IMG/VR virus record: IMGVR_UViG_2602041644_000005
Origin: a virus
Lineage: Duplodnaviria > Heunggongvirae > Uroviricota > Caudoviricetes
Strand: one strand, 5' to 3'
DNA: 5,171 nucleotides
Part shown: positions 148 to 5,171 of the stretch, in pieces
How positions within the stretch are numbered: position 1 is the first letter of the stretch
How the letters are laid out: each line of letters begins with the position of its first letter
Program-made: the position numbers and the translations under genes
Notes under the pieces: generated by a model
What the model was told of the DNA's origin: nothing
Databases searched by the model: none
The model's input: only the letters and a program-made list of their open reading frames with translations

Positions 148-486
148 CTATTTCCCTGAATTTACGACGAAACTGTTCGAGCGGGCTGAAGCACTCATGC
201 TCATAGCCTTCGCGGAGGTAGATAACACGTTGTGTTTCCGGTTCCCAACGAATGACTCTGACGGGCACTCCGTAGTGATCTTTGAACCAGCGGTTAACTT
301 GTCGCAAAGGACTGTCTCCTTCTGCCGGTTGAAATCACCCACAGCCCACTCAGCAAAGCTGTGGGTTACAATTTCCCTGTCACCTGGTACATTCACTGCA
401 TAGCAATATTCCACCTTCGCTTTTCCACCCGGTACAGGAAGCGCAATCAGTTGCGAGCGACGGTAGTGTGTTGTTAAACTGTTCAT
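148..486 (-). CDS. hypothetical early-operon protein (112 aa)
   Basis: ORF from the six-frame track. Its start ATG (486-484) overlaps the upstream gene's stop as ATGA (483-486). GGAG lies about 9 nt upstream on the minus strand. Its TAG stop (150-148) sits inside the SD of the next gene starting at 138. This translational coupling supports the minus ORF over the overlapping plus ORF 131-403. No recognisable motif. Confidence 0.6.
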
Positions 487-1040
487 GCGTTAGTTTCTCC
501 ACAACCAGAAGCAATCGACGCCACGACGCCCGGAGCTGCACACTCGCGGGCGTCATTACTTTCTGAAACACAAAAGATTTTGTAGACCAGTGCTGCATGC
601 TCCTGCAGCTTCGAAATTGAGAGGTACAGCTCGTCGTTAATTGCTGTCTTCTCATGCGGTTCCACTACACCGTCTTCGATTGCTGAACGAATCTGTTTTG
701 AATAACTGCCGATCTGTTCAATGACTTCCAGCAGACGCTGGTTAATATCGGCGTTGTCCACATCCTCGACGTCAGGAAGAGACACAAATACGCCATTTGC
801 AGACTGCGCCACAGCATCAGCAATGAAGTGAGTGCCACCAGCACGCTGTAAAACCATTGCCCATCCCAGCGGGAAAATCTGATCGCCATCGGCACGAAGG
901 CGGTTAAATAATGCGTTCTCTGTTACGTCCAGCCAGTCAGCAGCTTCAGCGTAACCCCCCGGCAACGCTGCGATAGTTTTTCTGACAGCTTTCACGTACC
1001 ACTCAGGCTGTTTTTCTATTTTCCAGTGATGCTTACCCAC
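483..1040 (-). CDS. phage early regulatory protein, possibly CII/YdaT-like (about 185 aa from a GTG start; maximal ORF extends to 1151)
   Basis: The maximal ORF 483-1151 (222 aa) would overlap the cro-like gene by 83 nt. An in-frame GTG at 1040-1038 is preceded on the minus strand by AGGAG (plus 1047-1051) with a 6-nt spacer and lies 28 nt after the cro-like stop (1069-1071), so it is the preferred start. Alternative ATG starts at 1118 and 1115 lack an SD. Family call rests on gene order (cro then cII/YdaT-like then replication) and weak recollection. Confidence 0.6.
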
Positions 1041-1068
1041 GGTTAACTCCTCGTTTCTGTGGTTACGT

Positions 1069-1332
1069 TTACGCAGCTGAACCGCTAACTTTTGAATAGC
1101 ACTCAGGTAATCCATCATTTGGATTGGGGTAAATATCAGGACGCAGTTCATGAGGGGTCACGGACCAGTTTCCCAACTCACAAAGTTGTAAAACCCGTTC
1201 TGACGGGACTTGATTGTTAATTACCCAATTAGCGACGGATTGAGTGGACTTAAAACCAAAGTGACGGGCTACTTCAGATAAAGATTTTCCCGCAGCTTTT
1301 ACTGCTTTCTCTGTGTAGTTTTGAGATGACAT
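1069..1332 (-). CDS. Cro-like / YdaS-family HTH transcriptional regulator (87 aa)
   Basis: ATG at 1332-1330 with AGGAG 6 nt upstream on the minus strand (plus 1333-1345 reverse complement is agaggagaaaggt). It is divergent from the CI-like gene across an operator-bearing intergenic region. The protein carries an HTH-like segment (LSEVARHFGFKSTQSVANWV) and an ELRPD motif typical of prophage Cro/YdaS-type regulators. Confidence 0.8.
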   Translation of the reverse strand: MSSQNYTEKAVKAAGKSLSEVARHFGFKSTQSVANWVINNQVPSERVLQLCELGNWSVTPHELRPDIYPNPNDGLPECYSKVSGSAA

Positions 1333-1400: not shown

Positions 1401-2143
1401 AAATGACTAGCGTATGTGATGCGAGTAACCTTCTACCTATGGTAGAAGAACAGAAGTATCCAGATTTCGCCAAGAGACTAAACGAGCTAATGACAAACAA
1501 GGGAATTTCTGTCACCCAACTCAAAAGTCTTGTGGGCGTTACATATGAAATGGCGCGGCGATACACAATCGGCGCTGCGAAGCCTCGTGCCTCTGTCATG
1601 AATAAACTTGCATTGGCTCTGGGGGTATCAGCTTCATATTTAGAATATGGTGTTGGCGAGAGAGAAGGATGTAAGGAAATGGCAAGCATCCCCAATCCAA
1701 CAAAACCCGATGTATACAGGATAGAAGTTTTGGATCTTAGCGTTAGCGCAGGACCTGGAACCTATATGCTTTCAGACTATGTTGATGTGCTCTACGCCAT
1801 TGAGTTCACAACAGAGCATGCCCGTTCTCTTTTCGGTAATCGTTCTCAAGATGATATTAAAGTTATGACTGTAAATGGCGACAGCATGTCCCCTACTCTA
1901 GTTTCCGGAGATCGACTGTTTGTCGACATTTCTGTTCGCAACTTCCAAACTGATGGTGTTTACTCTTTCGTTTATGGTAAGACGTTCCACGTTAAACGTC
2001 TACAAATGCAAGGCAACAAACTCGCCGTTCTTTCGGATAATCCAGCCTATGAGAAATGGTACATTGATGAGAAGTCCCAAGATCAACTTTATGTTATGGG
2101 CAAAGCATTGATACACGAATCAATTAAATACAACCGGCTTTAG
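1382..2143 (+). CDS. cI: CI-like phage repressor: N-terminal XRE-type HTH plus C-terminal S24 (LexA-like) self-cleaving peptidase domain
   Basis: HTH segment FAKRLNELMTNKGISVTQLKSLVGVTYEMARRY. The C-terminal domain carries the catalytic Ser motif VNGDSMSPTL and a downstream Lys (HVKRL), as in LexA/CI/UmuD. It is divergent from the cro-like gene. The start is uncertain among in-frame ATGs at 1382, 1403 and 1439; none has an SD, which fits a leaderless PRM-type transcript. The gene symbol is used functionally, not as an identity claim. Confidence 0.85.
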   Translation: MQLLKIEMTSVCDASNLLPMVEEQKYPDFAKRLNELMTNKGISVTQLKSLVGVTYEMARRYTIGAAKPRASVMNKLALALGVSASYLEYGVGEREGCKEMASIPNPTKPDVYRIEVLDLSVSAGPGTYMLSDYVDVLYAIEFTTEHARSLFGNRSQDDIKVMTVNGDSMSPTLVSGDRLFVDISVRNFQTDGVYSFVYGKTFHVKRLQMQGNKLAVLSDNPAYEKWYIDEKSQDQLYVMGKALIHESIKYNRL

Positions 2144-2170
2144 TTCTTCGTTTAGACTATAGAACTAAAG
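2138..2170 (+). other. 10-bp stem-loop (CTTTAGTTCT ... AGAACTAAAG) spanning the cI stop codon
   Basis: Perfect 10-bp inverted repeat with a 13-nt loop. It is followed by an A-run, not a T-run, so it is not a canonical intrinsic terminator. It could be an RNA-stability or processing hairpin, or mark the insertion boundary of the AT-rich segment. Confidence 0.3.
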
Positions 2171-2313
2171 GTGAAAAAATAATATTTATCAAGCAAGTGC
2201 TATTACTAATAGTTGTTTTACTCTCTTATTTTTATTAAACATTATCATTAACAATATAAAATAATCACCCAGCGTAAATTACAATATGCTGGGGGTCGAA
2301 AGGATAGAGAAAT

Positions 2314-3390
2314 ATGACAAAATCAATTTGTTTTTTTAATCATAAAGGTGGGGTAAGTAAAACCACAACAACCTTCAATCTTGGATGGGCACTTGCGGAT
2401 GAAGGCAAGAAAGTATTGATGGTTGACCTTGATTCGCAATGTAATCTAACAGGAATGGTTCTTGGCTATGAAAAGATTGATGAGGGTTTAGATTCTTTTT
2501 ATTCTAGCAGAGATAACTTAACTCTTGGACCTATTGTAGAATATTTGATTAATGGCGGACAACCTGAAGCATACCTTGAAAAAGAAACGGGAAAATTACA
2601 CCCTACACTGCATGAAAACCTTCTGCTTCTTCCCGGACATTTAGATGTTTCGGACTTAGATTCACAGATAAGTGTTTCTCTAAAAATTGCTGCTGGTATT
2701 CCTGCTACAAGAAATATACCAGGGAACCTGCCAAAAATATTACAGCTAATCGCCATGAAGAATAATATTGATTACATTCTTTATGATCTCAGCCCTAATG
2801 TTGGAGGTTTAAATGAAGTAGTTCTCATGTCAAGTGACTATTTTATCGTACCTGTAGCTCCAGACTTTTTTTGCTGGCAAGCAATTCGCTCTCTCTCAAA
2901 AAATATACCTCGCTGGCACAAAGAATTAGCATTATTTAAAGAAAATAATGATGGTAACTCTTCACAATCAATTAAAAATGCACCGCAGTTTCTAGGTATG
3001 ATTCAGCAGAGATACAGGCCGCGTAAAGGAGCACCTGTAAAATCTTTCGAAAAATGGATGGCAGCTATCCGTGATGCTGTTGATTCGATCTTAGTGCCAA
3101 ATCTAGAAAAAATTACCTGCATAATTCCACGAGATAAAGTGCAACATGCAATTAACAAAACAACAGTCAGTGGAGATTTATCAGCCTATGATCTTGCGCA
3201 TATTTCCGATTTCAACTCATTAATCGCAATAAGCCAACAACTAGCGACACCTGTTTTCTCCATCAGTGATCAGCAAATTCGCGATTCAGGGCAATTTGGG
3301 CATGCCTTAAATACAATGAAATCAAGCAGAGACGCCTTTAACGAACAATTTAAAGGGCTGGCTCAACGAGTTCTAGAACTTACAAAGTAA
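2314..3390 (+). CDS. ParA/MinD-family P-loop ATPase (deviant Walker A) with an uncharacterised C-terminal extension, 358 aa; orphan, no ParB partner
   Basis: N-terminus MTKSICFFNHKGGVSKTTTTFNLGWALADEGKKVLMVDLDSQCNLT matches the ParA/Soj/MinD deviant Walker A (KGGxxKT[TS]) and the following hhhhDxD motif. A mid-protein hydrophobic beta-strand plus Asp (YILYDLSPN) resembles ParA Walker B. AAGGA lies 9 nt upstream of the ATG. The gene is clearly more AT-rich than its neighbours (hand counts of 60-nt samples give roughly 28-45% GC against about 50% in the cro-side genes). The final about 150 aa are not recognisable. Confidence 0.85.
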   Translation: MTKSICFFNHKGGVSKTTTTFNLGWALADEGKKVLMVDLDSQCNLTGMVLGYEKIDEGLDSFYSSRDNLTLGPIVEYLINGGQPEAYLEKETGKLHPTLHENLLLLPGHLDVSDLDSQISVSLKIAAGIPATRNIPGNLPKILQLIAMKNNIDYILYDLSPNVGGLNEVVLMSSDYFIVPVAPDFFCWQAIRSLSKNIPRWHKELALFKENNDGNSSQSIKNAPQFLGMIQQRYRPRKGAPVKSFEKWMAAIRDAVDSILVPNLEKITCIIPRDKVQHAINKTTVSGDLSAYDLAHISDFNSLIAISQQLATPVFSISDQQIRDSGQFGHALNTMKSSRDAFNEQFKGLAQRVLELTK

Positions 3391-3397
3391 TGCATGT

Positions 3398-3420
3398 GCC
3401 CGGCCGCATAACCGGGCTTT
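3398..3420 (+). terminator. Intrinsic terminator after the ParA-like gene
   Basis: GC stem GCCCGG (3398-3403) pairs with CCGGGC (3412-3417) around an 8-nt loop, followed by TTTACTCTTCTTT. It lies 8 nt after the TAA stop at 3388-3390. Confidence 0.55.
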
Positions 3421-3575
3421 ACTCTTCTTTCTCCCTGATTAATCTCATAAAAAACTCCCTCCTCATAATTCACTATGCTCAATACCTACTCCAACTTCGT
3501 GCGATATTTTCAGTTTACAGCATAGTAAATCAGCAAAAACATTTAACTTTCAATTAATTATAGAAAAATCATAGA

Positions 3576-3633
3576 CAACAACAAATATCTACTTTTTGTT
3601 GTTGATTTTTGCTACTTTAAGTAGCAACATAAT
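3576..3633. promoter_or_regulatory. Candidate OL-type operator/promoter: perfect 19-bp dyad TTGCTACTT-T-AAGTAGCAA (3609-3627), an upstream CTACTT half-site (3589-3594), a flanking 10-bp inverted repeat (3576-3585 / 3595-3604) and CATAAT (3628-3633)
   Basis: The dyad core CTACTTTAAGTAG matches the cI-proximal repeats CTACTTAAAATAG at 11 of 13 positions. The two CTACTT half-sites here are 22 bp apart, against 23 bp at the cro/cI site. -35-like TTGCTA and -10-like CATAAT overlap the dyad. Everything is read directly from the sequence; function is inferred. Confidence 0.45.
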
Positions 3634-3736
3634 GTAAGCTATCACGGACAGGCAGGACGCCCACGAAGTAGCCGCCGGTGGCGTATGAATGACCGGATGA
3701 TTCGTTAGCAACAAAAAAGCGCCCTACCGGACGCTT

Positions 3737-3750
3737 CGCTCTTTAAAAAT
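3737..3750 (+). promoter_or_regulatory. boxA-like element CGCTCTTTAAAAAT (possible nut-site component)
   Basis: Near-identical to the boxA consensus (GCTCTTTAACAA in rrn; CGCTCTTAAAAATT in lambda nutL as I recall it). It sits about 110 nt downstream of the OL-like promoter on the plus strand. No convincing boxB hairpin follows, so this is tentative. Confidence 0.3.
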
Positions 3751-3853
3751 CAGTAACCCTCACTTTGGGCCTGGATCTGGTGGCCTGGGACGAGGTGGAA
3801 TATGAAAAGGCTCTATTGGTCGACTCATTATCCAATCCTATTATGTCTCATTT

Positions 3854-3880
3854 CTTCGGTTTCGGTGGTTTCGGCTTCGG
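3854..3880. repeat. Short hexamer repeat block CTTCGG-TTTCGG-TGG-TTTCGG-CTTCGG (mirror-symmetric)
   Basis: Read directly. It lies 23-50 nt beyond the stop of the minus-strand 164-aa gene, in its 3' flank. Confidence 0.5.
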
Positions 3881-3902
3881 AGGCACATGTCCGTGAACTG
3901 GA

Positions 3903-4397
3903 TTATGCTTGTTGGTCATCATTAATATCCGTTAGTTCATTCTCTAGAGGTAGATCTCCCGCACACCAAGCTATAAATTTTTCTTTGGTTGTTAAATCGT
4001 ACTTAGTTGGAACACCAGCAAAAATACAGGCCCGAATGAAAGCCGCTCGTTCAAGTGATTTCCATGGATTACTATCAGTATCTTGGATTTTTAAATACCT
4101 AGCTTGCAACTGATCTTCAGGAAGGGTATCAGACTCAATCAGCAGTCTTTTGTAATGCCTCGCTTGCTCTTTAGACATTCCAGCCTCTTGGCCAAACTGA
4201 TAGACCAACTGAAGAACCGAAAGTACGGCAACAAACAAACCGAAAATAAATAAATTACTGTACGGGGCGAAAACTGAAAAACCGAGAACGATTAACATCA
4301 ACGTTATTAATTTATCAATGCGAGTTAACAACGTGTAATTCATCTTCTCCAATACATAAGAGTAGTGAACATAAAATTTATAATCGTCTCTGGTCAT
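3903..4397 (-). CDS. Small inner-membrane protein (164 aa; two predicted N-terminal TM helices plus charged C-terminal domain); candidate SieB-like superinfection-exclusion or abortive-infection protein
   Basis: A 495-nt ORF in AT-rich DNA, where stop codons are frequent, so unlikely by chance. The hydrophobic hairpin LITLMLIVLGFSVFAPYSNLFIFGLFVAVLSVLQLVY is followed by a K/E/D-rich soluble region. It is oriented opposite to cI and convergent with the ParA-like gene. The start is ATG 4397, or ATG 4343 with GGAG 3 nt upstream. SieB-like is a guess from size, topology and genomic context only. Confidence 0.65.
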   Translation of the reverse strand: MTRDDYKFYVHYSYVLEKMNYTLLTRIDKLITLMLIVLGFSVFAPYSNLFIFGLFVAVLSVLQLVYQFGQEAGMSKEQARHYKRLLIESDTLPEDQLQARYLKIQDTDSNPWKSLERAAFIRACIFAGVPTKYDLTTKEKFIAWCAGDLPLENELTDINDDQQA

Positions 4398-4496
4398 ATT
4401 AGTCTCAGTTTTCCTTGGGTGGTTTTGGAGGAACTGGAGGCTTTTGTCTTAACGGCACATGCCTCTCCTCATACTTATCTACACATAGATCCATAT

Positions 4497-4553
4497 AAAT
4501 CCTTATCGTTGTTGGGGAGGGTTACATAATAACCAAATCCTTGTTGTTGGGGA
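4497..4553. repeat. Direct repeat AAATCCTT(ATC)GTTGTTGGGGA (4497-4518 and 4535-4553) flanking a small inverted repeat GGTTA-cataa-TAACC (4520-4534)
   Basis: Read directly. It lies in the non-coding region upstream (on the minus strand) of the 164-aa gene, near the right edge of the AT-rich segment. Confidence 0.5.
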
Positions 4554-4782
4554 ATAACCAGGTCCACCTCGCCTGATGTGGCTAAAAGCAGGCACATAAC
4601 AGCTAAGTATTTTCAACCAGAGAGAATCCTTAGCGTTGTGGTGAATGCGCAGGCTGATGCGCGAAAGACATTGCAGCTATTGCGGAAAAGAGCTGTTCGG
4701 CGGGGCAATTAAACGCCCGTGAGAGTCTGAAATAACCGCAAGCCGGAGATCAGCACCGGTCACCACAACAGCCACTGCTTTG

Positions 4783-4828
4783 GCGGTACCAGTTTGTACA
4801 CTTGCTTCCGGCTGGTACCGCTCTTTTT
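4783..4828 (+). terminator. Intrinsic terminator or attenuator (10-bp stem GCGGTACCAG / CTGGTACCGC, 19-nt loop, then TCTTTTT)
   Basis: Perfect 10-bp stem 4783-4792 pairs with 4812-4821, followed by a run of five T at 4824-4828. It is plus-oriented (the minus strand has no T-run after the stem). It lies about 140 nt upstream of the ATG at 4966. Confidence 0.55.
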
Positions 4829-4917
4829 ACAAAACAGAGAAGAGCATCACCGGACGACGGGCTCATAACCCAATCCATCCGGGCGGCTGCCACCGCAGGT
4901 GTTCTTCTCTGTTTTGT
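4829..4917 (+). other. Long-range inverted repeat forming a potential 20-bp RNA helix (4829-4848 with 4898-4917) that encloses about 49 nt, immediately upstream of the RBS of the 4966 gene
   Basis: ACAAAACAGAGAAGAGCATC pairs with GGTGTTCTTCTCTGTTTTGT; 17 of 17 core positions pair if one G-U is allowed, and the helix extends to 20 bp with a second wobble. A stem this long is unusual for a simple terminator and has the length RNase III recognises. Confidence 0.4.
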
Positions 4918-4965
4918 GGAGAAACCAACCGACCTTGCAGGGTCGATATGATGAGGAGCAGCAAA

Positions 4966-5171
4966 ATGGCTAGCGAACGCAGTACTGATGTGCAGGCATT
5001 TATCGGGGAGCTGGACGGCGGCGTATTTGAAACCAAAATCGGCGCAGTTCTCAGTGAAGTCGCTTCCGGTGTGATGAACACGAAAACCAAAGGTAAGGTC
5101 TCGCTCAACCTGGAAATCGAACCGTTTGATGAGAACCGTGTGAAAATCAAACACAAACTCTCATATGTTCG
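4966..5171 (+). CDS. 5' end of a hypothetical phage early protein (open to window end)
   Basis: ATG at 4966 with GAGGAG 9 nt upstream; alternative in-frame ATGs at 4948 and 4951. Translation MASERSTDVQAFIGELDGGVFETKIGAVLSEVASGVMNTKTKGKVSLNLEIEPFDENRVKIKHKLSYV has no stops and ordinary enterobacterial composition. No family recognised. Confidence 0.7.
   Translation, partial: MASERSTDVQAFIGELDGGVFETKIGAVLSEVASGVMNTKTKGKVSLNLEIEPFDENRVKIKHKLSYV

Follow-up and report, generated by a model that had tools for sequence, protein, structure and literature searches.

The 5,171-nucleotide (nt) stretch of viral DNA analysed here (IMG/VR record IMGVR_UViG_2602041644_000005, Caudoviricetes; the whole stretch is hereafter called the window) is the immunity region of a lambdoid Escherichia coli prophage of the e14/SfV/mEp460-like kind. 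Its cI repressor gene lies on the plus strand and is followed on the same strand by a gene at 2314-3390 for a stand-alone 'long' ParA/Soj-like ATPase of 358 amino acids (WP_000167381.1). Sequence comparison and genomic context suggest that this ATPase is rather probably expressed in lysogens and serves, like GiPD474, in defence or exclusion, protecting the lysogen against superinfecting phages, and that it would be a distant paralogue and functional counterpart of GiPD474 itself. We favour this role because the gene shares its slot with an orthologue of a validated defence protein, because the two families are linked by profile homology, and because members of the window family recurrently reside in immunity regions and among cargo genes and have effector-coupled relatives. 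A preliminary description of the window, made from its letters alone, had already proposed a defence role, which the shared slot and the profile homology now support, and had called the gene an uncharacterised type of defence gene, a claim that was overtaken when GiPD474 was described in November 2025. The window family is thus not a new type of defence gene but probably a second, divergent family of a recently described one.

The repressor slot and the tested relative GiPD474

GiPD474 (STM474_RS13505) is a 361-amino-acid protein encoded by a single gene in the Gifsy-1 immunity region of Salmonella Typhimurium 4/74, where it adjoins a repressor/cro/cII module; its expression in lysogens is high (Bosma, Noireaux & Bowden, AEM 2025; PMC12724215). 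The same study assigned it a ParA/MinD/Soj fold, with an AAA_31 match and the Walker A motif GGVGKT at residues 29-34, and delimited its family by at least 70% identity and at least 70% coverage (PMC12724215). Deletion of gipd474 restored the plating of phage FO1 and complementation brought resistance back; FO1 plaquing was significantly reduced by GiPD474, and expression in LT2 or E. coli K-12 lowered the plating of T4 and Alf5 by ~5 logs, with T7, SP6 and others being insensitive (PMC12724215).

In the window, the ATPase gene lies directly downstream of cI, on the same strand and 5' of an OL-like operator, as the preliminary description had it and as the open reading frame (ORF) and operator coordinates agree. 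Alignment with sister prophages indicated that cI is conserved to ~2146 and the OL side from ~3559/3584, the latter as far as 3706 in two sister loci (L092 and L093), and that the sequence between them (~2147-3559/3584) is replaced. With conserved flanks in cI and OL, this exchangeable cassette corresponds to the position of rexAB and bstA (PMC8585504), which upholds the earlier comparison with the rexAB slot. Like lambda RexAB and BstA, the ATPase is placed 3' of the repressor and 5' of OL/N and follows their logic of lysogen expression (PMC8585504), but it has no sequence or fold relationship to either, RexAB being a two-protein sensor/ion-channel system and BstA a KilA-N-type DNA-binding protein with a self-immunity element.

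E. coli prophages with a 91-94% identical cI carry in this slot the window ATPase, or a 361-amino-acid 'ParA family protein' (WP_000606712.1, for example in O157:H7 strain 146N4), or small ORFs, such as the two small hypothetical ones of strain CX08; a PADLOC scan of these alternative occupants gave no full-length match. The window gene was found at an identity of at least 99% in 109 of 5,426 complete E. coli genomes (~2%), each time after the same cI, and its carriers include the historic (Escherich's) strain NCTC86 and APEC O18. The gene is probably lysogen-expressed accessory ('moron') cargo. IS3 and IS1 insertions break the cI-ParA region in 2 of the 109 carriers (NZ_CP058223.1 and NZ_CP096587.1).

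Judged by sequence, the alternative occupant WP_000606712.1 is the GiPD474 orthologue. Nucleotide BLAST of the gipd474 knockout-primer arms gave no match, owing to nucleotide divergence, and translation was used instead. The published lambda-Red arms translate to DNGRVEATDRPTE and ALESDVSTVVKC, the former being the N-terminus of the S. Typhimurium protein P0403, and the latter matching the C-terminal end of the E. coli orthologue P0391 (…EALESDVSTVVKCL) and overlapping the terminal residues of P0403 (a partial record). P0403 and WP_000606712.1 belong to the same 90% cluster and are 93% identical, with GGVGKT at residues 29-34. A validated ParA-like defence gene and the window gene thus alternate as cargo of one slot behind a near-identical repressor.

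The window ATPase is 23% identical to the GiPD474-type protein in BLASTP, far under the 70% of the published family. Profile-profile comparison (hhalign) of the two family alignments gave a probability of 99% (E 7e-18) over 303 columns, covering window residues 1-323, and several family motifs outside the generic ParA core are common to both (LLPGhLDV/LLPGDVDL, D-x-x-P, IVP..PD/IIPCTAD, QQRYRPR/VQNRSRT and DFNSLIAI/DGNTLAAI). On these profiles, the two families are branches of a 'long ParA-like' group that also holds DIP2308. Like GiPD474, the window protein is a stand-alone ParA/Soj-like ATPase of ~360 amino acids with an AAA_31 match and a deviant Walker A, encoded beside a repressor/cro/cII module. 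Unlike GiPD474, it lacks an N-terminal leader, its Walker A starting at residue 11 instead of 28, and its family includes HEPN-coupled and protease-fused relatives, none of which has been reported for GiPD474.

The ATPase family and its effector-coupled relatives

Pfam AAA_31 matches residues 3-204 of the ATPase (E 2e-29), and phrog_164 ('ParA-like partition protein') matches it end to end. The deviant Walker A (FNHKGGVSKTT) occupies residues 8-18, with the KGGVSKT core at 11-17, and the signature Lys11, together with Lys16, Asp38/Asp40 and Asp158 (Walker B), does not vary in any of 44 homologues, confirming the deviant Walker A and ParA-like core of the preliminary description. Alignment and structural model together show that the ATPase retains all residues of the ParA ATP-sandwich-dimer switch. 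The AlphaFold2 model is of high confidence (pLDDT 84, pTM 0.88) and forms one domain, with core strands running on at residues 225-232 and 293-297, and Foldseek aligned it over its whole length with Soj and with DIP2308 (3PG5). Because the model is a single domain whose core strands continue past residue 225, the novel C-terminal domain of about 150 residues that had been suggested does not stand as a separate unit. Instead, ~100 extra residues, consisting of helical insertions (about 50-100, 185-218 and 243-282) and a long terminal helix, are conserved in full-length homologues of many phyla. These homologues (38-100% identity over residues 1-357) fall into 132 clusters (50% identity, E below 1e-30) and come from Proteobacteria, Firmicutes, Cyanobacteria, Chloroflexota, Acidobacteriota, Bacteroidota and Spirochaetes. 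DIP2308 of Corynebacterium diphtheriae has the same ~360-amino-acid architecture but is ~24% identical, and its structure, 3PG5, is a structural-genomics 'uncharacterized protein'. The only PADLOC match of the ATPase was PDC-M28B, aligned in the Walker A region (residues 3-40 against model positions 129-166 of 438), and membership as component B of PDC-M28 was rejected as a P-loop-only match.

In a sister branch with 38-41% full-length identity, the ATPase gene is overlapped by a downstream gene for a RiboL-PSP-type HEPN protein (PF18735) at 14 fetched loci (L064-L088), and at 4 more (L048, L049, L067 and L076) the next gene encodes a 310-amino-acid protein that has an RNDAIH motif but no match in Pfam. 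In the neighbour-joining tree, the window protein lies on a solo branch apart from these HEPN- and RNDAIH-coupled clades. The HEPN-coupled members are mostly from Chloroflexota, Acidobacteriota and Cyanobacteria, with few from Proteobacteria and one from an uncultured Enterobacterales metagenome-assembled genome (MAG). Gene fusions also occur: a Peptidase_C48/RickCE protease lies C-terminal to the ParA-like domain in 4 of the 10 long proteins examined, and one fusion joins an N-terminal Schlafen AlbA_2 domain and HATPase_c_4 with the ParA-like domain (four protease fusions and one Schlafen fusion; P0181, P0182, P0184, P0195 and P0241).

Dyads of a ParA/Soj-like ATPase and a HEPN protein have been predicted as toxin-antitoxin-like conflict modules (Anantharaman et al. 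2013; PMC3710099), the published dyad involving the MAE_18760 HEPN family (PMC3710099). The dyad ATPases are full-length homologues of the window protein and sit in the same family tree; unlike them, the window clade is without HEPN or any other conserved partner, and the dyads are known as predictions. The window gene has no HEPN (Rx4-6H) gene downstream, its 3' side consisting of a hairpin and an overlapping 55-amino-acid ORF with the next real gene on the opposite strand past OL, and no HEPN gene was present at any near-clade locus examined.

Relatives of the ATPase are carried by 148 viral contigs in IMG/VR. Among the two upstream genes in 43 non-redundant contexts, HTH_3 was found 15 times, Peptidase_S24 8 times, YdaS/cro-like genes 6 times, CI_repr 4 times and P22_Cro 3 times, and RloB, HicA, RelA_SpoT, HipA and Tlde1 are also among the neighbours in these contexts. 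A ParA-like gene directly after the repressor occurs likewise in Salmonella lambdoid prophages, Klebsiella, Pseudomonas capeferrum, Morganella and Pectobacterium. The P22-like Salmonella phages ST160/SE1 have the order c2, DUF3024, ParA-like gene and gene 24, with the ParA-like gene in the slot that bstA takes in the P22-like prophage BTP1, and their DUF3024 protein matches the PADLOC candidate PDC-S43 over its full length. The DUF3024 gene, of 113 amino acids, lies in the interval between repressor and ParA-like gene both in ST160 (L002 4521-4862) and in Morganella (L010 7418-7759), with PDC-S43 E values of 2e-41 and 2e-30, respectively.

Beyond repressor-proximal sites, the ParA-like gene is found beside Arc/Ant modules in Acinetobacter and Chromobacterium prophages, between Q and the lysis genes in a Serratia prophage, next to HicAB, DarTG and a type I restriction-modification system in a satellite-like island of D. 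gigas, in Aeromonas with a primase gene and a P2-type capsid gene as neighbours, and next to ParE and PBECR4 in Mannheimia. A 30%-identical ParA-like ORF (Orf317, 'putative regulatory protein'; L009 5079-6032) is located at the repressor/att end of the Pf-type filamentous Pseudomonas prophage AY324828. Among the near-clade loci examined, no neighbour is conserved, and a conserved partner for this clade was rejected, the following genes encoding shikimate kinase, polyprenyl synthetase, a UvrA-like protein and similar products. Several literature searches by topic and by WP accession returned nothing on the window ATPase family, and one listed the GiPD474 study through its general terms only.

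The left end of the exchangeable cassette lies in the AT-rich 170-nt spacer (2144-2313, plus strand; 27% GC) that separates cI from the ATPase gene. No terminator in this spacer is convincing (fold z -0.75), and it contains a weak promoter-like site at 2236-2265. A weak terminator-like site, a GC-rich hairpin with a T-rich tail, lies 8 nt past the ATPase stop codon (3398-3417, plus strand; -12.5 kcal/mol, z -1.5). Transcripts from the cI promoters, and possibly also from the weak promoter in the spacer, would cross the spacer and stop at this hairpin, so that the ATPase would be made while the lytic genes are repressed. Considering that some relatives are translationally coupled to HEPN RNases and others fused to C48-type proteases or a Schlafen/AlbA domain, the ATPase may work as a nucleotide-dependent sensor or switch. 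More speculatively, the solo ATP-bound dimer could disturb a post-injection step by binding phage DNA, a phage protein or a host factor.

Several points weigh against a defence role. Phage resistance by expression alone has been shown only for GiPD474 itself, and at 23% identity the function of the window protein could differ. Co-transcription with cI is inferred only from the missing terminator. The solo clade has no recognisable effector, PADLOC 2.0 gave no full-length model match for the ATPase, and several of its near-clade MAG homologues adjoin housekeeping genes.

If the defence role holds, single-gene ParA-like defences would comprise two deeply divergent families, that of the window ATPase being unflagged by PADLOC-DB 2.0 and reaching Salmonella, Klebsiella and Pseudomonas prophages and satellites besides E. 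coli. Two families of 23% identity that are exchangeable in one slot would form a natural comparative pair for understanding how an effector-less, positioning-type ATPase stops phages, and the HEPN-coupled and protease-fused relatives would connect the experimental result on GiPD474 with the ParA-HEPN modules of the 2013 prediction. The gene is also a plausible, so far overlooked factor in phage susceptibility, of interest for phage therapy and typing. Our results also raise, more tentatively, the possibility that the 'long' ParA/Soj-like ATPases of ~360 amino acids, comprising the window, GiPD474 and DIP2308 families, make up a broad superfamily, so far unrecognised, of NTPase switches of the immune type that arose from DNA-positioning ATPases, with the solo forms being effector-less. 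In such a superfamily, some branches could switch HEPN RNases, C48 proteases or Schlafen domains, the solo prophage forms could defend by a new mechanism, for example by ATP-dependent capture of incoming DNA, whether phage or plasmid, or of a protein of replication or packaging, and the window family would have a target spectrum distinct from that of GiPD474.

Alternative roles of the ATPase

A modulator of lysogeny or host physiology, which like Soj, FleN or MinD would regulate, for the prophage's benefit, a DNA-bound process such as repressor function, induction, or host replication or division, is an unlikely role for the ATPase. Its linkage to a repressor could be taken in this sense, but such linkage is also typical of the defence genes bstA, rexAB and gipd474. 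The slot is dispensable and exchangeable, prophages of the same immunity holding unrelated small ORFs there, and the family is also found away from repressors, in satellites and at moron sites of tail and lysis regions. As for MinD in particular, minD_bact scored 35.3 bits against a cut-off of 212.9, and no minC or minE gene is nearby in the prophage annotation.

It is quite improbable that the solo ATPase is an orphan antitoxin or anti-defence factor, neutralising host ParA-HEPN-type toxins or other defence and thereby aiding phage establishment or survival. The ATPase has been postulated as the antitoxin of the ParA/Soj-HEPN dyads (PMC3710099), and the coupling of the sister branch to HEPN, next to a window clade without a HEPN gene, would agree with such an origin. 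However, GiPD474, the same-slot homologue, gives resistance alone in a heterologous host, the window gene probably belongs to the lysogeny transcription unit and not to the early lytic genes, and the HEPN-coupled members are mostly outside Proteobacteria. All catalytic residues are conserved, which therefore argues against a decoy.

With partition ParA proteins (Soj, P1 ParA, F SopA, TP228 ParF and pNOB8 ParA), the window ATPase shares the deviant Walker A KGGxxK[ST], the signature lysine and the ParA/MinD fold; unlike them, it comes without ParB, parS or a replicon to segregate, and it carries ~100 residues of family-specific insertions. The lack of ParB noted in the preliminary description extends to the whole annotated 25-kb prophage, in which, as in the window, no ParB or adaptor gene is present, and neither tandem repeats nor a parS consensus (up to 3 mismatches) were found in the window, whose only meaningful repeats are the cI operators. 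A match to a characterised partition ParA with ParB and parS was looked for and not found, the best NCBIfam score being 55.8 bits against a cut-off of 180 (ParA_partition, residues 5-43 only), with lower scores for RepA (40.8 against 348), PrgP (32 against 400) and SopA (21 against 725). The curated ParA, MinD, BcsQ, RepA, SopA and PrgP families were rejected, all being P-loop-region matches far under their cut-offs. A partition or maintenance ATPase for an excised or pseudolysogenic genome, perhaps with a host or unrecognised adaptor, or a variant that destabilises competing plasmids or phage-plasmids, is thus very unlikely, also considering that the prophage is integrated beside its own integrase at yecE, that near-clade loci share no neighbour and that sister prophages of the same immunity lack the gene.

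Other features of the immunity region

The left part of the window contains a phage gene (148-486), a ymfL/cII-like gene (483-1151, minus strand) and a cro-like gene (1069-1332, minus strand). The cI-type repressor (1439-2143, plus strand; WP_001535858.1) has HTH_3 and Peptidase_S24 domains according to Pfam, PHROGs and RefSeq; its ORF opens at 1382, the RefSeq start is at 1439 and the stop at 2143. A 17-bp palindrome, TGCTACTTAAAATAGCA, occurs twice in the interval from the cro-like gene to cI (1363-1379 and 1386-1402), where it forms the OR-type operators, and recurs as TGCTACTTTAAGTAGCA at 3610-3626 within the OL-type operator region (3585-3630). A repeat search of the window identified the OR and OL regions as a 46-nt inverted pair, and by the sister alignment the OL region is the right conserved flank of the cassette. 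The ATPase gene is AT-rich relative to its flanking genes, in agreement with the preliminary description, at 37.7% GC (27.6% at third codon positions, GC3) versus 43.3% for cI (GC3 40.4%) and 49% for the cII-like gene.

A 9-bp GC-rich hairpin at 2268-2293, ~20 nt 5' of the ATPase start codon and directly before the ribosome-binding site, folds at -15.8 kcal/mol (z -3.8), with 0 of 200 shuffles folding equally well. Lacking a T-run, this hairpin is not a terminator; its role in the cassette may be in RNA stability, processing or regulation. At the other end of the gene, the 55-amino-acid ORF (3390-3557) is not taken for a hidden effector, since it shares sequence with the terminator hairpin, is of low complexity and has no homologous downstream gene at other loci.

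A second variable slot lies beyond OL, at window positions 3707-4632. It contains a minus-strand gene (3903-4397) for a 164-amino-acid protein with two transmembrane segments (phrog_6315), transcribed towards OL with its own terminator at 3737-3716 (minus strand), and the protein has no Pfam, PADLOC or NCBIfam match. NCTC86 and APEC O18 carry unrelated minus-strand genes of 167 and 171 amino acids in this slot, and 146N4 carries nothing there. The 164-amino-acid gene, once considered a partner of the ATPase, was rejected as a conserved partner because it lies on the opposite strand past OL and because at least 3 of the other carriers examined have unrelated genes in its place or none. It could be a further lysogen-expressed accessory or exclusion gene.

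Towards the right end of the window, a 134-amino-acid ORF (4750-5154, minus strand; phrog_3651) overlaps the start of a yfdP-type plus-strand gene and is probably spurious. The window follows strain AVS0542 only to position 4928, beyond which it follows yfdP-type prophages (99% to L092), and this switch of the best-matching prophage therefore indicates mosaicism at the start of the early-left operon.

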